Of a stretch of 64,000 nt of DNA, positions 5,443-59,312 are shown one piece after another. Position numbers and translations under genes: made by a program. The notes beneath the pieces were generated by a model that did no database searches, was not told the DNA's origin, and saw nothing but the letters and a program-made list of their open reading frames with translations. The DNA comes from Pseudomonadota bacterium (GTDB taxonomy: Bacteria > Pseudomonadota > Alphaproteobacteria > Rhizobiales > Xanthobacteraceae): the NCBI GenBank assembly GCA_040387615.1, contig JAZKDK010000021.1, positions 72,311 to 136,310 of the forward strand, given 5' to 3'. Within the stretch, counting starts at the first letter, position 1; every line of letters begins with the position of its first letter.

Positions 5443-6600
5443 ATGGCAAAGCGTCGCATTCCAGCGTGGGCGTATGTCCTCGCAGCATTCCTTCTGATCG
5501 GCGGCGTCTATCTTGGCTGGCCGCGGCATCAGACGCCGAACGTAGCCGCTGGAAAATCTGACGCGGGTCCAGCCATCCCGGTTACCGTCGCCAGCGTTTC
5601 AAAAGCTGACTTCCCTGTTTATCTGACCGGACTCGGAACTGTTCAGGGCTTCAACACAGTCACCGTGCGTACGCGCGTCGATGGCGAGATCAACCAGATT
5701 GCCTTCAAGGAAGGCCAGATGGTGAAGGAAAGCGATTTGATCGCGCAGATCGATCCCCGCCCCTTTCAAGCCGCTCTGGATCAGGCGAACGCCAAGAAAG
5801 CCCAGGACGAAGCAAGCCTCGCCAACGCCCAGCGCGACCTTCAACGTTCAACCAAGCTCGGCGATTTTGCGACGAAGCAAACAGTCGATACGCAGACCTC
5901 GGCTGTGCAGCAGCTGACCGCGCAGATCGCTGCCGATCAGGCCACCATCTTCAATGCGCAGACCCAACTCGACTATGCCAGCATCCGCGCGCCGATCTCA
6001 GGCGTGACCGGAATCCGGCAGGTGGACGTCGGCAACATCGTCAATGCGGCGACGCAAACCGGCATCGTGACCATTGCGCAGATCGAACCAATCTCCGTGA
6101 TCTTCACGGCACCCGAAGGCCAGCTCCCGGACATCGCCGCCGCACTTCGCCAGCACGAAACGAAGGTGACCGCATTTACATCTGATGGCCGCAGGATGCT
6201 GTCCGAAGGCACCCTGTCGCTGATGAACAATCAGGTCGATACCACCAGCGGCACCATTCGCCTCAAGGCAACATTCGACAACAAGGACCACGCCCTATGG
6301 CCGGGCCTGTCGGTCTCGACGCGCCTGCTCGTCAACACACTAAAGGACGCAATCGTCATGCCGGACGATGCCGTGCAGCACGGCAATGACGGCCTCTATG
6401 TCTTTGCAGTGGCCGAGGGCAACAAGGCTGACGTGCGCAAGGTCAGGGTCGGCCCTTCGACAGACGGAAAAACACTCGTCGAGAGCGGCGTCTCTGCCGG
6501 TGATCAGGTTGTAACCCGCGGACAGTATCGCGTGCAGCCTGGATCGCCGCTGGCCATCAACGTCGCCAGTTCGGGACAACCTTCGGCAAAGGCCGACTGA
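5443..6600 (+). CDS. RND efflux periplasmic adaptor (MdtA-like)
   Basis: N-terminal TM anchor, VRTRVDGEI, IDPRPFQAAL, IRAPISG, NQVDTTSGTIRLKA. Confidence 0.92.
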   Translation: MAKRRIPAWAYVLAAFLLIGGVYLGWPRHQTPNVAAGKSDAGPAIPVTVASVSKADFPVYLTGLGTVQGFNTVTVRTRVDGEINQIAFKEGQMVKESDLIAQIDPRPFQAALDQANAKKAQDEASLANAQRDLQRSTKLGDFATKQTVDTQTSAVQQLTAQIAADQATIFNAQTQLDYASIRAPISGVTGIRQVDVGNIVNAATQTGIVTIAQIEPISVIFTAPEGQLPDIAAALRQHETKVTAFTSDGRRMLSEGTLSLMNNQVDTTSGTIRLKATFDNKDHALWPGLSVSTRLLVNTLKDAIVMPDDAVQHGNDGLYVFAVAEGNKADVRKVRVGPSTDGKTLVESGVSAGDQVVTRGQYRVQPGSPLAINVASSGQPSAKAD

Positions 6601-51952: not shown

Positions 51953-53104
51953 TCATTCCCAGCTCAACGCGCCGCCATTCTGGTATTCGATAACGCGGGT
52001 CTCGAAGAAATTCTTCTCTTTCTTCAGGTCCATCGCCTCCGACATCCACGGGAACGGATTGTCCGTCTCATCGAACACCCGCGTGAGCCCAAGCTGGGCG
52101 CAGCGGCGGTTGGCAATGAAGTGCATATACTGTTCGCACAGCGCCGCGTTCAGGCCCAGGAATCCCCTCGGCATGGTGTCGCGGCTGTAGGCGGCTTCCA
52201 GTTCGGCGGCGTCACGGATCATGCCGCGCACCTCGTCCTGGAATTCGTGCGTCCACAGATGCGGGTTTTCCATCTTGATCTGGTTGATGACGTCGATACC
52301 GAAATTCAGGTGAATCGATTCGTCGCGCAGGATGTACTGATACTGCTCGGCGATGCCGACCATCTTGTTGCGGCGGCCGAGCGACAGGATCTGCGCAAAC
52401 CCGGTGTAGAACCACATCCCCTCGAAGATCACGTAAAACGCGACCAAATCGCGCAGGAACGCCTGATCCGACTCCGGGTCGCCGGTCTTGAAATCCGGGT
52501 TTTCAAGATTCTGCGTATGGTTCAGCGCCCACGCCGCCTTGTCGGTGATCGACGGCACCTCGCGGTACATATTGAACAGCTCGCCCTCGTCGAGGCCGAG
52601 ACTTTCGACGATGTACTGGAACGTGTGGGTGTGGACCGCCTCCTCGAATGCCTGCCGCAGCAGGTACTGGCGGCATTCGGGATTGGTCAGGTGACGGTAG
52701 ATCGCCAGCACGATGTTGTTGGCGACGAGACTTTCCGATGCCGCGAAGAATCCCAGGTTACGCTTGATGGCGCGGCGCTCGTCGTCGGTCAGGCCATCGC
52801 GCGACTTCCACAGCGCGATGTCGGCCTGCATCGAGACTTCGGTCGGCATCCAGTGGTTGTTGCAGCCGGCGAGATACTTCTCCCACGCCCATTTGTATTT
52901 CAGCGGCAGCAACTGATTGACGTCGGCGCGGCAGTTGATCATTGCCTTGTCGTCGACCGACACGCGGCCACCCTTGCGATCGATGGTGCCAAGCCCTGTT
53001 GGATCAAGGCCGGTTTGGTCAACTACTACGGATTCACCGGTCAAGATCGGCGGAAGTGTATTGATGGCTTTGTTCGGTGAAGTTTCGGACCAGTCGAGCA
53101 TCAT
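51953..53104 (-). CDS. nrdB: Ribonucleotide reductase beta subunit, class Ic (R2c, Mn/Fe)-type signature
   Basis: [43 protein letters not shown]; start set at ATG 53104. Confidence 0.95.
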
Positions 53105-53127
53105 CGTATTCCTTGTTTCGAGGCTGC

Positions 53128-56046
53128 TTACTGGCAAGCTTCACAGTCGGGATTGTCGATCGAGCACGCCACCACATCGGACAGGTCTGGCGCGGTTGAG
53201 GCCTGCGGGACGACGATCGGCTTGTTCACCGGCATGGAAGCGAGCGACGATGACGACACGGCATTGAGCTTCCCGTCGGTGCCCTTCAGCGTCGACTTCT
53301 CCACATGCGTGGCGCTGCGCGAGCGCAGGTAATAGGTCGTCTTCAGACCGCGCGTCCACGCCAGCCGGTATAATTGATCAAGCTTCTTGCCCGATGGATT
53401 GGCGATATAGAGATTGAGCGACTGCGCCTGATCGATCCATTTCTGTCGCCGCGCCGCCGCTTCGATCAGCCACGTGCTGTCGATCTCGAACGCCGTGGCA
53501 TAGAGCAATTTCAGATCGTCGGGGATGCGATCGATGGAGCCGACGCTGCCGTCGAAGTATTTCAGGTCGGAGACCATCACTTCATCCCACAGGCCGCGCT
53601 CCTTCAGGTCGCGGACGAGAAACTCGTTCACTTCAGTGAAATCGCCCGACATGTTCGATTTGACGTAGAGGTTCTGGTAGGCTGGCTCGATCGACTGCGC
53701 CACGCCGCAGATGTTGGAAATCGTCGCCGTCGGCGCGATCGCCATCACGTTGGAATTGCGCATGCCGGTGGATTGCACCCGCCCCCGCAAGGTCTTCCAG
53801 TCCAGCGTGGTGCTGCGGTCCATCTCAAGCCCCCCGCGTGCATCGGCGAGAATCTCGATGGAGTCGATCGGCAGGATACCCCTCGACCAGAGCGATCCGT
53901 TGAACGATGGATAGCTGCCGCGCTCAGCGGCCAGATCGACCGACGCCGAGATGGCATGGAAGGAAATTGCCTCCATGCTGGTGTCGGCAAAGGCCACCGC
54001 CTGATCCGACGCCATCGGGATTCGCAGCGCATGAAGCGCATCCTGGAAGCCCATCAGACCGAGACCGACCGGACGATGCTTGAGGTTCGAGCGGCGTGCT
54101 TCGGGGATGGTGTAGAAATTGATGTCGATGACGTTATCGAGCATCCGCATCGCGGTTGTGATCGTCCGCTTCAGCCGCGCATGATCGATACCGCCTTCGC
54201 CCACATGGTTGAGCAGGTTGACCGAACCGAGATTGCAGACCGCAACCTCATCGTCCGACGTGTTCAACGTGATCTCGGTGCAGAGATTCGACGAATGGAT
54301 GACGCCGACATGCTGCTGCGGCGAGCGCAGGTTGCACGGGTCCTTGAACGTGATCCACGGATGTCCGGTTTCGAACAGCATGGTCAGCATGCGGCGCCAC
54401 AGATCAGTGGCGCGCAGCTTCTTGAACACGCGCATTTCGCCGCGCGCAACCTTGTCTTCGTAGAAGGCGTAACGCTCGGCGAACGCCTTGCCGTAAAGGT
54501 CATGCAGATCCGGCGTCTCGTCCGGCGAGAACAGCGTCCATTCGCCGTCGGCCTCGACGCGCTGCATAAACAGATCCGGCACCCAGTTCGCGGTGTTCAT
54601 GTCGTGAGTGCGACGGCGGTCGTCGCCGGTGTTCTTTCGCAGATCGAGGAATTCCTCGATATCGACATGCCACGTCTCGAGATAGGCACAGACCGCGCCT
54701 TTGCGCTTGCCGCCCTGATTGACCGCAATTGCCGTGTCGTTGGCGACTTTCAGGAACGGCACCACGCCCTGACTTTCGCCGTTGGTGCCCTTGATGTGCG
54801 CGCCGAGGCCGCGCACGCGGGTCCAGTCGTTTCCGAGACCGCCGGAATATTTCGCCAGCAGGGCATTGTCCTTCACCGACTTGAAGATGCCGTCGAGATC
54901 GTCGGCCACCGTGGTGAGGAAGCAGGAGGACAATTGAGGACGCAGCGTGCCGGAATTGAACAGCGTCGGCGTCGACGCCATGAAGTCAAACGACGACAGC
55001 AGGTTGTAGAATTCGATGGCCCGCGCTTCGCGGTCGATCTCGCGGATCGCAAGGCCCATCGCGACGCGCATAAAGAACGCCTGCGGCAGCTCGATACGGT
55101 TGCCGTCGTCGTGCAGGAAATAGCGGTCGTACAGTGTCTGCAGACCGAGGAACTGGAACGACAGGTCACGCTCAGGCTTCAGCGCCGCGGCGATCCGCGT
55201 CAGGTCATAACGCGCCAGTTCTGGATCGAGCAGTTCGGCCGCGATTCCCTTTTTGACGTAAGCGGGGAAATACTCGACGTAACGCGCCGTCATATCCGCC
55301 TGCGTGGCGCTGATCGGCGTGCCGTGGACGAACGAGAGAACCTCAGTGCGCAGCTTGTCGAGCAGCAGCCGCGCGCTGACGTAAGCGTAGTTCGGCTCCT
55401 GCTCCACCAGCGTGCGCGCGGCCATGATCCCCGCGAGCGCCAGTTCGTCCTGGCTGATGCCGTCATAAAGATTGCGGCGGGTCTCTGCGAGAACGGGGGC
55501 GAAATCGACGCCGTCGAGATTTGCGCAAGCCTCCTGAATGATCAGCGTGAGGCGATCAACGTCGAGCGGCACGCGCGTGCCGTTGCCCAGCGTCACATGC
55601 AATAGCGGCCCGGATGATGTTTTTGCCGGCTTCGCAGCCTCCGCCTCGGCGCGCTGGCGCTGACGTTCGTCGCGGTACAGCACATAGGCACGGGCGACCT
55701 TGTGGTGTTCGCTGCGCATCAGCGCCAGTTCGACCTGATCCTGTACATCCTCAATGTGGAAGGTGCGCCCCTCGCCGATCCTGCGGGTCAGCGCACTCAC
55801 CACCTCGTTGGTCAGTTGCTCGATCACCTCGTGAATGCGGCGCGACGCTGCCGCGGTGTGCCCCTCAACGGCGAGGAACGCCTTGGTCATCGCGATCGAA
55901 ATCTTGCCGGCATCGAACGGCGAGACCGTGCCGTTGCGGCGGATGACCTGCAGCGGCGGCTCTGCGGCAGGGACGGCCAGCGACTCGGAACGCAACTGAA
56001 TGAGAGGAGCGGATTTGGCGGCTTCGCGTTCGAGAGAGAGTGACAT
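53128..56046 (-). CDS. nrdA: Class I ribonucleotide reductase alpha subunit with two N-terminal ATP-cone-like domains
   Basis: [36 protein letters not shown]-terminal [11 protein letters not shown]; start set at ATG 56046. Confidence 0.96.
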
Positions 56047-56170
56047 CGGCAGACCCCGTGCATGTTGCAATTTTTGGGGGCTTGGGCCGAGAGAACGCTG
56101 CATGACGACCGGCGTGCGCCAGCAATGCTGCAAGCGACCTCCGGACACCCCGCCCGTGGACGTTCTTTTG

Positions 56171-56372
56171 TGTCGCGGCAGGTCTCCTGACTCGCAGGTC
56201 GGCGCTGAATCCGGTCTTCCCGATGCGAAAACGCACCAGTGACATCGGTCGGATTCAACTCACTGCTTACAGTTGCGGGGGCAGCGCCGGATTTGCTGCA
56301 TCTAAGTGCAACTCACCGGCTTCCCATTTTCACCGCTAGGCCTTGCGGCTTTGCGAAACCTCGACGTCTACA
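56171..56372 (-). ncRNA. Cobalamin riboswitch upstream of nrdAB
   Basis: Minus strand AAAAUGGGAAGCCGGUG...AAAUCCGGCGCUGCCCCCGCAACUGUAA...GUCACUG...CGGGAAG...GAGUCAGGAGACCUGCC; ends approximate. Confidence 0.92.
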
Positions 56373-56380
56373 TCTGGTAG
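56365..56380. promoter_or_regulatory. Candidate NrdR box
   Basis: cgtCtAcATcTgGtag matches the conserved C-A-AT-T-G positions of the acaCwAtATaTwGtgt consensus, at the 5' end of the nrdA leader. Confidence 0.5.
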
Positions 56381-56644
56381 CGTTCGAGTGACGCTGTCAA
56401 GCACCAGTGGATGTGAATAACGGGACCAAAGCGACAAACGCGCGAAATGCTCAGCAAATCGCGGCAGATTTTTTTCTGGTGCGATGAGCAATGAGCACGC
56501 AACGCCTCGTGCAGCGGATGGCTCTCGGCGAATCGCCGTGCGCGGAATCTCATTTCGCCTCTGCCCACTCACCTCACCCGCGCATCCGGCACCAGTGTGG
56601 TGGGAAGCTTTCCCTTTGACCCGCCGGAGCGCGCTTCTCATAAC

Positions 56645-56845
56645 ATCAGCATCGCGGTTCTGCGGATCGGTGGTCCGGAGCCAAGAGGGAATGCGGTGCG
56701 CGCGATCCAGTTGGATTGCGCAAGTCCGAAGCTGCCCCCGCAACTGTAAGCGGCGAGCCTTTGTCCATCACTGCCACTGCGGCGCAAGCCGCGGGAAGGC
56801 CGGACTTAAGGCGTCGACCCGTGAGCCAGGAGACCTGCCGCGATT
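56645..56845 (+). ncRNA. Cobalamin riboswitch upstream of metE
   Basis: AAGAGGGAAUGCGGUG...AAGUCCGAAGCUGCCCCCGCAACUGUAA...GCCACUG...CGGGAAG...GAGCCAGGAGACCUGCC; ends approximate. Confidence 0.93.
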
Positions 56846-56957
56846 ACATAACGTCCACGGGCGGGGTGCCCCGGTGTGTCGCTTGCGAGAGGACGGCACC
56901 GCCGTCTCTGTTGTTCGCGCATGTCCGGCTCCTGCCCCAACATCACGGGGTTTTGCA

Positions 56958-59312
56958 ATGTCGGGTTTTGTTTCTGCTCCATCCATTCCTGTCGCCACGC
57001 TGGGCGTGCCGCGCATCGGTCCACGCCGCGAACTCAAAATGGCGTTGGAAAAATTCTGGTCCGGCAAGATCGACGCGGCCGCGTTGCGCGAGGCCGCTGC
57101 GAAAATTCGCACCGATAACTGGAAGCGCCAGCGCGATCTCGGCGTCACCGTGATCCCCTCGAATGATTTCTCGCTCTACGATCAGGTGCTCGATACCAGC
57201 GCCATGGTCGGCGCGATTCCGAAGATCTACGGCTGGACCGGTGGGCCGGTGTCGTTCGAGACCTATTTCGCGATGGCGCGCGGCAGCCAGAAGGACTTCT
57301 CTAATCAAGATTCGGGCGATCATGATGGCTGCACGCATGGTCATAGCCACAACCACGGCGTGCCCGCACAGGAAATGACCAAATGGTTCGACACCAACTA
57401 CCACTACATGGTGCCGGAATTCGCCAGGGATCAGACTTTCACTCTCGCCTCCACCAAGGCGATCGACGAATACCGCGAGGCCAAGGCACTCGGGATTCAG
57501 ACCCGGCCGGTGCTGGTCGGCCCCGTCACGTTCCTCAAGCTCGGCAAGGGCGAGAACCGGCTGTCGCTGTTGCCGAAGCTGCTGCCGGTTTACATCGAGG
57601 TGCTCAACAGGCTCGCCGCGGAAGGCGCGGACTGGGTGCAGATCGACGAGCCGTGTCTCGTCCTCGATCTCGACGCGGATGAAAAAGCTGCGCTGAAAAC
57701 GGCCTATAGCGAGTTCGCGCTGAAGGTCCCCGGTGTCAAGATCATGCTGGCGACCTACTTCGGCGAACTTGGCGACAACGCCGATCTCGTCACCAAATTT
57801 CCGGTGGCCGGGGTACATCTCGATCTGGTGCGCGGCAAAGGCCAGATCAATACGGTCTTGAGCAAGATGCCTGCGGATCGCGTGATCTCGCTGGGCGTGA
57901 TTGATGGCCGCAACATCTGGCGCGCGGATCTCACAAAGGTTCTCGATCTCGCCGGAAAGGCTATTGCGGTGCGCGGCGGCGCGGATCGTATCCAGATCGC
58001 GACGTCGTGCTCGATGCTGCACGTGCCAATTGATCTCGATCAGGAAACCGATCTCGATGCGGATCTGAAAAGCTGGCTCGCGTTCTCGGTGCAGAAGATG
58101 AGCGAACTGGCCGCGCTCAGCCACGCGCTGTCGTCGGGGCGTGAGTCCGTCAAAGATGTGTTTGCGGCCTCCGATGATGCCGCGAAGAAGCGCGCCTCCT
58201 CGCCGAAGATCCACAATCCGGCGGTGAAATCGCGTGCGGCGGAAAAATCCTCCGCGCTTTCGGAACGCAAGAGTGCGTTCAGCGCACGGCAGAAGCTTCA
58301 GAGCAAGGTGCTCGGCCTGCCCTCGTTCCCGACCACCACCATCGGCTCGTTCCCGCAGACCGAAGAGGTGCGCAAGGCGCGCGCGGCCCACACCAAAGGC
58401 CAGCTCAGCGACGCCGAGTATGATGCGTTCCTGCGCAAGGAAACCGAAAAAGCCGTACGCTGGCAGGAGGACATCGGCATCGACGTGCTGGTGCACGGCG
58501 AGTTCGAGCGCAACGACATGGTGCAGTATTTCGGCGAACAACTGTCGGGTTACGCCTTCACCAAACACGGCTGGGTGCAGAGCTACGGCTCGCGCTACGT
58601 TCGCCCGCCGATCATCTTTGGCGACGTGTCGCGCCCGAAGCCGATGACGGTCGGCTGGTCGTCCTACGCGCAGTCTCTCACTACGTTGCCGATGAAGGGC
58701 ATGCTCACCGGTCCGGTCACCATGCTGCAGTGGTCGTTCGTGCGCGACGACCTGTCGCGCGATCAGGTCTGCCGCCAGATCGCCTTCGCGCTGCGCGACG
58801 AGGTGACTGATCTCGAGAAGGCCGGCATCGGCGTGATCCAGATCGACGAGCCGGCGTTGCGCGAGGGTCTTCCGCTGCGCAAGGGCGACTGGAAGGCCTA
58901 TCTCGACTGGGCAGTGGACTGTTTCAAGGTTTCGCAAGCCGGCGTGAAGGACGAAACCCAGATCCACACCCACATGTGCTACGCCGAGTTCAATGACATC
59001 ATCGATGCCATCGGCGCGATGGACGCCGACGTGATCTCGATCGAGACCTCACGCTCGAAGATGGAACTGCTCGACGCCTTCGTGACTTACAAGTATCCGA
59101 ACGAAATCGGACCGGGTGTCTACGACATCCACTCGCCGCGCGTGCCGGAGGTGCCGGAAATGATGGAGCTGATCGGCAAGGCGCGCCGCAACCTGTCGCC
59201 GGACCAGATCTGGATCAATCCGGATTGCGGTCTCAAGACACGCGGCTGGCCGGAAGTCCGATCCGCGTTGACCAACATGGTCGAAGCGGCAAGGCAGGCG
59301 CGCGTGGCTTAG
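56958..59312 (+). CDS. metE: Cobalamin-independent methionine synthase
   Basis: PRIGPRRELK, EMTKWFDTNYHY, PTTTIGSFPQT, VHGEFERNDMV, IHTHMCY (Zn), GPGVYDIHSPR, NPDCGLKTR; start set at ATG 56958. Confidence 0.97.
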   Translation: MSGFVSAPSIPVATLGVPRIGPRRELKMALEKFWSGKIDAAALREAAAKIRTDNWKRQRDLGVTVIPSNDFSLYDQVLDTSAMVGAIPKIYGWTGGPVSFETYFAMARGSQKDFSNQDSGDHDGCTHGHSHNHGVPAQEMTKWFDTNYHYMVPEFARDQTFTLASTKAIDEYREAKALGIQTRPVLVGPVTFLKLGKGENRLSLLPKLLPVYIEVLNRLAAEGADWVQIDEPCLVLDLDADEKAALKTAYSEFALKVPGVKIMLATYFGELGDNADLVTKFPVAGVHLDLVRGKGQINTVLSKMPADRVISLGVIDGRNIWRADLTKVLDLAGKAIAVRGGADRIQIATSCSMLHVPIDLDQETDLDADLKSWLAFSVQKMSELAALSHALSSGRESVKDVFAASDDAAKKRASSPKIHNPAVKSRAAEKSSALSERKSAFSARQKLQSKVLGLPSFPTTTIGSFPQTEEVRKARAAHTKGQLSDAEYDAFLRKETEKAVRWQEDIGIDVLVHGEFERNDMVQYFGEQLSGYAFTKHGWVQSYGSRYVRPPIIFGDVSRPKPMTVGWSSYAQSLTTLPMKGMLTGPVTMLQWSFVRDDLSRDQVCRQIAFALRDEVTDLEKAGIGVIQIDEPALREGLPLRKGDWKAYLDWAVDCFKVSQAGVKDETQIHTHMCYAEFNDIIDAIGAMDADVISIETSRSKMELLDAFVTYKYPNEIGPGVYDIHSPRVPEVPEMMELIGKARRNLSPDQIWINPDCGLKTRGWPEVRSALTNMVEAARQARVA

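Follow-up and report, generated by a model that had tools for sequence, protein, structure and literature searches.

The comparative-genomics rule that B12 elements, i.e. cobalamin riboswitches, accompany the genes of B12-independent isozymes is said to go back to the work of Rodionov, Vitreschak, Mironov and Gelfand in 2003 (J Biol Chem / RNA). Riboswitches of this kind have reportedly been described by Borovok et al. in 2006 (J Bacteriol 188:2512) for nrdABS of Streptomyces coelicolor, where the control was given as transcriptional, and by Warner et al. in 2007 for metE of Mycobacterium tuberculosis. In this paper, we have analysed a locus that carries two such elements, located in a 64,000-nucleotide stretch of DNA (hereafter the window; positions 72,311 to 136,310 of contig JAZKDK010000021.1, assembly GCA_040387615.1) from an alphaproteobacterium of the Xanthobacteraceae, in which nrdAB, encoding a B12-independent ribonucleotide reductase (RNR), and metE, encoding the cobalamin-independent methionine synthase, are transcribed divergently, each behind a cobalamin riboswitch. 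B12 elements are known to repress the B12-independent RNR and MetE in organisms where both isozymes coexist (PMC545781, PMC2211319). For E. coli btuB and env8HyCbl, it has been demonstrated experimentally that a ligand-dependent kissing loop between L5 and L13 stabilises the P13 hairpin, and that P13 promotes a hairpin at the ribosome-binding site (PMC10327014). The metE riboswitch of Priestia megaterium works by a terminator and an antiterminator (PMC10327014). Our results suggest that the two elements of the window are probably independent translational OFF switches, one on a class Ic nrdAB operon and the other on metE, in a bacterium that imports B12 and does not produce it.

Two cobalamin riboswitches between nrdAB and metE

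Scanning the whole window against Rfam 15 (cmscan, gathering threshold) returned two matches in all, both to the Cobalamin family RF00174, both covering the full model and both far above its gathering score of 31.5 bits. The two aptamers lie back to back with a gap of 259 nt between them (56379-56637), and each is found in the same-strand 5' leader of a gene, at a distance of 113 nt from nrdA and of 101 nt from metE. The aptamers and the genes that they precede are as follows.

56638-56856, plus strand: cobalamin riboswitch aptamer of the metE arm (RF00174, 123.1 bits, E 2e-30, model positions 1-189)
56160-56378, minus strand: cobalamin riboswitch aptamer of the nrd arm (RF00174, 115.1 bits, E 4e-28, model positions 1-189)
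53128-56046, minus strand: nrdA, large RNR subunit carrying ATP cones at its N-terminus (NF005544, 1728.6 bits, cut-off 965; Pfam Ribonuc_red_lgC, 636.7 bits, and two stretches of ATP cone)
51953-53137, minus strand: nrdB, RNR small subunit of class Ic, R2c (NF005550, 677 bits against 309; Pfam Ribonuc_red_sm, 313 bits)
56958-59312, plus strand: metE, cobalamin-independent methionine synthase (TIGR01371, 1099.5 bits against 929.95; Pfam Meth_synt_1 and Meth_synt_2)

The core blocks of RF00174 are seen in both alignments, namely the GGGAA junction, the L5 loop GCCCCCGC, the B12 box GCCACUG and GAGACCUGCC, with the B12 box of the nrd aptamer taking the variant form GUCACUG. A first-pass annotation of the window had proposed two complete, divergent cobalamin riboswitches at ~56171-56372 (minus) and ~56645-56845 (plus), ~270 nt apart, leading into nrdAB and metE, and had regarded the products of both arms as B12-independent isoenzymes. 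The Rfam scan bears out both elements, the proposed coordinates agreeing with the matches within ~10 nt, and the profile scores establish which genes lie behind them and that both encode B12-independent enzymes.

The nrdB gene overlaps the stop of nrdA and falls outside the interval considered in that annotation (53128-59312); its translation may in fact begin at the ATG at 53104. In the NrdB motif EEAVHTHTF, which aligns residue for residue with the R2c structures 6y2n and 4d8f/1syy (Chlamydia), a phenylalanine is found at the position of the radical tyrosine, and the operon is assigned to class Ic because of this replacement, as in the R2c of Chlamydia. NrdB is ~90% identical to Protein Data Bank entry 6y2n, the R2c of the actinobacterium Saccharopolyspora erythraea, despite its alphaproteobacterial host.

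B12-related genes of the genome

The assembly comprises 4.3 Mb in 91 contigs and is 94.9% complete. It contains three RF00174 matches, two of which are those at the nrdAB-metE locus; the third precedes a monocistronic gene for a 706-aa TonB-dependent receptor, which scores below the BtuB equivalog cut-offs and is probably the B12 importer. Both B12-dependent isozymes are encoded as well. NrdJ is represented by a 1277-aa frame (562 bits combined, above the cut-off), and metH is present as two halves, each ending at a contig end; since these ends share an overlap of exactly 55 nt, we consider metH to be one gene broken by the assembler. CobS was not found in the 94.9% complete genome, and only two TP_methylase genes are present. 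The de novo cobalamin pathway requires at least five TP_methylase genes; with two of these and no CobS, the genome does not seem to support cobalamin synthesis.

With nrdJ, metH and a TonB receptor behind a riboswitch, but no genes for making cobalamin, the organism thus looks like a corrinoid scavenger, which keeps riboswitch-gated B12-independent backups of the two B12-dependent enzymes. This fits the rule attributed to Rodionov and co-workers. The first-pass annotation had suggested a 'B12-starvation backup', an idea with which this gene content agrees, and had held that a genome devoid of both metH and nrdJ would speak against it; both genes are present.

Expression platforms and the proposed mechanism

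Between each aptamer and its start codon lies an expression platform of about 100 nt, in which a G-rich segment (the G-box), a Shine-Dalgarno (SD) sequence and a C-rich strand complementary to it (anti-SD) can be recognised.

56047-56159, minus strand: nrd expression platform, with the G-box (P13/L13) at ~56143-56164 (GGGCGGGG at 56155-56148), the anti-SD C-run at 56080-56076, the SD sequence GGGG at 56057-56054 and the AUG at 56046-56044
56857-56957, plus strand: metE expression platform, with P13/L13 at ~56858-56873 (GGGCGGGG at 56859-56866), a variable hairpin at 56891-56907, the anti-SD sequence CCCC at 56935-56938 and the SD sequence GGGG at 56947-56950

The two leaders differ in their variable aptamer peripheries and share a 22-nt segment after P1, AACGUCCACGGGCGGGGUG(Y)CC, with 95% identity. 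We have compared them with nrd and metE leaders sampled across many families of Alphaproteobacteria, 36 for the layout and 32 for the folding of the SD region. In all 36 leaders, the element CGGGCGGGGUGYCCCGG, which can be written as CGGG-CGGGGUG(U)-CCCG, follows directly after P1, and is itself followed by a variable hairpin and then by the arrangement (C)GGCC-N-GCCCCC-N(6-20)-GGGGU-N(5-9)-AUG. This conserved SD-AUG sets the start of metE at 56958; the ATG at 56484, which opens a long open reading frame through the riboswitch, is an artefact and was rejected as the metE start.

In both leaders of the window, the sequence of the P13 loop, CGGGG, complements that of L5, which is invariant (CCCCG). 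When the last 48 nt are folded, the G-run of the SD sequence pairs with the upstream C-run in 31/32 leaders, and the same pairing is predicted in both leaders of the window, the outer stem of the SD hairpin extending to the bases that adjoin the AUG. The minimum free energy (MFE) hairpin of the nrd platform has the form UCGGC..CCCCC...GGGG..GCCGA. The SD stem shows compensatory variants among the leaders (GCCC/GGGC, CCCU/AGGG, GAGCCU/AGGCUC and CCCCGG/CCGGGG), and outer stems of different sequence nevertheless pair (UCGGC/GCCGA versus AUCGUC/GACGAU). A duplex of the G-box with the anti-SD strand is feasible in every leader (-18 to -29 kcal/mol), and it is this duplex that forms in the unconstrained MFE structure of the metE platform, the G-box pairing with CUCCUGCCCC and leaving the SD sequence open.

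This G-box platform is absent from the leader of the TonB receptor and from the Rieske-oxygenase leaders of relatives (see below), and is present in one nrdDG leader (L102) and one cbtA-cobW leader (L101); it is thus typical of the leaders of backup isozymes but not exclusive to them. In a Hyphomicrobium metagenome-assembled genome (MAG; L017, 1-8782), metE at 6001 lacks an upstream RF00174 element, nrdA has one and another follows metE; in the leader that follows metE, a changed L5 (CUCCCG) is matched by CGGGA in the platform, and such compensation is in keeping with a kissing loop.

We propose translational OFF switches because the platform architecture is the one shown experimentally for E. 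coli btuB and env8HyCbl; the repression is inferred, by analogy, to be of the same type. The organism, unable to make cobalamin and carrying NrdJ and MetH, would import it, probably through the riboswitch-controlled TonB receptor. When corrinoid is present, it would be bound by each aptamer, upon which L5 (CCCCCG) would kiss the G-rich loop of the P13 hairpin (CGGG-CGGGGUG-CCCG) and keep P13 in its closed form. Downstream, the C-run with its flank (CGGCC...GCCCC) would then be available for pairing with the SD sequence GGGG(U) and with the stretch that leads to the AUG, and translation initiation would be blocked. When corrinoid is absent, P13 would open, and its G-rich strand would pair with the anti-SD strand; the ribosome-binding sites would thus be freed, and both backup enzymes could be made. 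What the analysis shows directly are the aptamers, the genes, the B12-related gene content of the genome and the conservation of both layout and platform, whereas the ligand response, the kissing loop, the sequestration of the SD sequence and the promoters are inferred.

Each arm would be transcribed from its own promoter inside the 259-nt spacer, in which the following features were found.

56379-56637: divergent promoter spacer, with blocks invariant in five species of the genus and the remainder variable
56400-56395, minus strand: candidate nrd -35 hexamer TTGACA, conserved within the genus
56616-56621 and 56638-56643, plus strand: candidate metE promoter TTGACC-N16-TCATAA, hexamers conserved within the genus
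56602-56614: inverted repeat GGGAA-GCT-TTCCC, invariant in five species and abutting the candidate metE -35 hexamer
56562-56569: block CTGCCCAC, invariant in five species

A stringent sigma-70 scan found no promoter site in the spacer, so the promoters are postulated solely from the hexamers conserved in the genus. The inverted repeat or the block CTGCCCAC may be bound by a transcription factor that acts on metE besides the riboswitch. The genome encodes nrdR; NrdR boxes, sought with the box consensus, had no match in the window at up to 3 mismatches.

Linkage of nrdAB and metE in other genomes

To see how common the pairing is, 80 species-level metE loci from Alphaproteobacteria were retrieved by MetE similarity, and their 6-kb flanks were examined. 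An RNR operon was found within 6 kb of metE in ~19/80 loci, i.e. about a quarter, and ten of the 80 show the divergent layout with two RF00174 elements seen in the window. These ten come from Nitrobacter, Bradyrhizobium (four), a Bradyrhizobiaceae MAG, Falsochrobactrum, Geminicoccus, Aestuariivirga and a Micropepsaceae MAG, the last with an RNR of another class. Other arrangements were found as well: in Xanthobacter the nrd and metE units are in tandem, each gene with its own riboswitch; in Ancylobacter and one MAG they are convergent, again with a riboswitch each; and in the actinobacterium Prauserella, found from the NrdA side, riboswitch-led metE and riboswitch-led nrdAB are in tandem. By our own arithmetic, two genes in a genome of 4-9 Mb are expected to lie no more than 6 kb apart by chance in ~0.2-0.3% of cases, so that the observed linkage is far above chance expectation, although the sampled loci are not phylogenetically independent. 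Selection for co-location fits these data, since the linkage is far more frequent than chance across the Alphaproteobacteria. The closest relative of the window NrdA (87% identity) lies in a locus with riboswitch-led nrdDG followed by riboswitch-led nrdAB.

Several further loci deserve mention. An Acidobacteria MAG (L105, 1867-7781) has metE and nrdAB divergent around two riboswitches; its NrdA nests among alphaproteobacterial sequences, its MetE lies on a very long branch, and the pair could reflect transfer or mis-binning. Riboswitch-led nrdDG followed by riboswitch-led nrdAB is found in L102 (1435-7907). In a Xanthobacteraceae MAG (L096, 2981-4889), a riboswitch is followed by an internally deleted metE remnant and then by riboswitch-led nrdAB, and in L101 (392-9029) riboswitch-led nrdAB is followed by a riboswitch with a NicO-like transporter gene, cobW and cobN. 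A variant cobalamin riboswitch, with the core GAAACCAGCC and a different platform, precedes a gene for a Rieske ring-hydroxylating oxygenase in L053 (9755-11340), L082 (9942-12614), L048 and L058; in L082 a reductase gene joins the oxygenase behind it, and a second back-to-back riboswitch pair separates the oxygenase from a DUF6925 gene. Riboswitch-led Rieske oxygenase genes adjoin metE/nrdAB clusters in genomes of the Mesorhizobium group and in Aestuariivirga, and the enzyme could be another B12-independent substitute.

History of the two arms

Within the genus of the window, metE is present in 14/18 other species, and in at least six of these 14 (G018, G017, G002, G015, G001 and G005) nrdA lies divergently upstream of it. 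Both flanks are syntenic with the window in five of the six, all but G001, the order being a methyl-accepting chemotaxis protein (MCP) gene, nrdB, nrdA, metE, cytochrome c and flavocytochrome-c sulfide dehydrogenase (FCSD; missing in G005), and onward to a Mo-co oxidoreductase. In these five species the flanking proteins and NrdA are 76-99% identical to those of the window at the amino acid level (mostly >90%), with one unannotated open reading frame at 57-74%. No mobility genes adjoin the nrdAB-metE block. Because both flanks are syntenic in five species, we consider the locus to be chromosomal and vertically inherited within the genus.

The two proteins have different histories. The window NrdA groups with NrdA of the Bradyrhizobium type (98*/100* support). 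The window MetE falls, with those of three genus members and of one unlinked member, into a separate deep lineage next to Methyloceanibacter and Micropepsaceae, which stands away from the other genus members, the MetE tree splitting the genus into two or three lineages. At the syntenic locus of G015 (L191) and G005 (L194), MetE is 74% and 70% identical to that of the window, versus 95% and 92% for NrdA and ~76-96% for most flanking genes. An approximately unbiased (AU) test did not quite reject monophyly of the genus MetE (p-AU 0.09); another AU run (p 0.0002) was discarded as invalid, since MAG rows that probably belong to the same genus lay outside the constrained group. The divergence of MetE at the syntenic locus suggests a possible in-situ (xenologous) replacement of the metE allele within the genus.

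The aptamers cluster by gene and not by genome (5 changes versus 11.7 expected, 0/500 shuffles). For this genome, we have rejected the idea that one riboswitch was recently copied to the other arm: in the multiple alignment, the two aptamers of the window are no more than 57% alike, and each falls among its own orthologues. In Falsochrobactrum (L023, 4570-5896) and Ancylobacter (L079, 5665-13478), the nrd riboswitch is 82-84% identical to the metE riboswitch of its own genome, more than either is to any orthologue, and the two platforms are nearly identical within each genome, which suggests that the arms have undergone conversion within the genome or a recent duplication. On either protein tree, the linked state requires at least 10-12 changes.

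Alternative explanations

The translational mechanism has to be weighed against control that acts mainly on transcription, by Rho-dependent or intrinsic termination in the ~100-nt platforms, with SD occlusion being secondary. Rho typically acts on long, untranslated, structured leaders; the S. coelicolor nrdABS riboswitch is reportedly transcriptional; and the metE leader contains a terminator-like hairpin with a U-poor tract at 56891-56907. This lone site, however, equals what is expected from shuffled sequences (1 found versus a mean of 1.0) and is not conserved in relatives, in which the central hairpin is variable and has no U-run, the SD hairpin and the G-box being the conserved elements. 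No conserved terminator, i.e. a G+C hairpin with a U-run before the start codon, was found in the nrd and metE leaders. We thus consider control mainly at the level of transcription to be an unlikely account. Several computations, on the other hand, weigh against translational switching. In a partition-function test the mean probability of the SD sequence being unpaired fell only from 0.35 to 0.32 when the free G-box was blocked, so the switch was not reproduced, and the platform folding energies were not better than those of dinucleotide shuffles (z -1.0 to +0.8) in this G+C-rich background. RNAalifold on the 32 platforms gave only an invariant helix between the G-box and CCUGCC of the aptamer strand, with zero compensatory pairs; formal covariation is weak because the key helices are almost invariant, and MAFFT puts the outer SD-stem strands in different columns, which makes column-wise pair counts unusable. 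The G-box could pair with any of three C-rich partners, since L5, the anti-SD strand and the strand CCUGCC of the aptamer are all complementary to it, and the alternative structure may thus take more than one form. Finally, at 94.9% completeness, the failure to find cob genes argues strongly, though not conclusively, against a cob pathway. With these points taken into account, translational OFF control in a B12-importing non-producer is still the reading that we prefer.

As to the arrangement, it had also been suggested in the first-pass annotation that the nrdAB-riboswitch-riboswitch-metE block could be acquired as a unit. The scatter of the divergent layout over several alphaproteobacterial families and its occurrence in the Acidobacteria MAG are in favour of such a mobile module, but flank synteny extends to five other species of the genus, mobility genes were not found beside the block, the placements of NrdA and MetE disagree, the aptamers group by gene, and the linked state has changed repeatedly on both trees; we regard acquisition as one mobile unit as highly improbable. 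Alternatively, the adjacency could be devoid of functional meaning, a neutral product of rearrangement and shared ancestry. As each arm owns an aptamer, a platform and a candidate promoter, mechanistic coupling is not needed; furthermore, in many close relatives (L090-L095, L097-L099 and several genus members) the two units occur unlinked, riboswitch-led nrdAB being found without metE nearby, and the linkage has been gained or lost many times. Against neutrality stand the frequency of linkage (~19/80 versus ~0.2-0.3%), the recurrence of the pairing in divergent, tandem and convergent form, also in Acidobacteria and Actinobacteria, and the fact that other B12-regulated genes join such clusters. 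Neutral adjacency therefore seems doubtful to us, and repeated juxtaposition of independently evolving units, probably selected, fits better than a mobile unit.

Implications

The locus offers a clean natural case of cofactor-sparing regulation, in which a B12 scavenger keeps B12-independent routes to deoxyribonucleotides and methionine, both of which would be silenced upon corrinoid import. The head-to-head pair also provides a compact system in which the dose-responses of two riboswitches with the same platform could be compared in one cell. More generally, B12-regulated genes tend to aggregate in Alphaproteobacteria, including nrdAB, metE, nrdDG, cob and transport genes, and the Rieske oxygenase. 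A bolder and quite tentative proposal, which we put forward as a speculation, is that the double riboswitch forms a selected 'B12-sparing' supra-operon: the nrdAB, metE and nrdDG leaders of Alphaproteobacteria would share one dedicated, sequence-invariant platform (a G-box L13 and an L5-mimicking anti-SD strand), both arms would switch at the same corrinoid threshold, and the riboswitch cores would serve as homology anchors for in-situ exchange of metE and for conversion between the arms.

Comparison with known systems

No description of a head-to-head nrdAB/metE pair was found in the literature searched, a search outside which the original 2003 papers lay. The locus leaves current understanding unchanged, being an ordinary example of a rule known since 2003, in a layout common among related soil bacteria; it extends that rule by an arrangement which is common and yet, as far as we found, not explicitly described. 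As the rule has it, B12 elements precede metE and nrdAB in a genome that also encodes metH and nrdJ; the difference is that the regulated units are paired head to head here. With S. coelicolor nrdABS the locus shares a cobalamin riboswitch in the nrdAB leader, the same NrdA/NrdB family (actinobacterial NrdA is ~70% identical to that of the window) and the presence of NrdJ, whereas here nrdS is lacking, the platform looks translational, with an SD hairpin, and the unit is paired with a metE riboswitch. The metE switches of P. megaterium and M. tuberculosis are likewise cobalamin OFF switches before metE in the presence of MetH; in P. megaterium a terminator/antiterminator is used, while a conserved terminator was not found here. 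Similar in architecture are E. coli btuB and env8HyCbl, which also have a hairpin with a G-rich, L5-complementary loop directly after P1 and an RBS-sequestering hairpin (RBS, ribosome-binding site) downstream, but which control other genes; the platform of the window is ~100 nt long and contains an extra variable hairpin, and its anti-SD strand (UGCCCCCAAC) resembles L5 itself.

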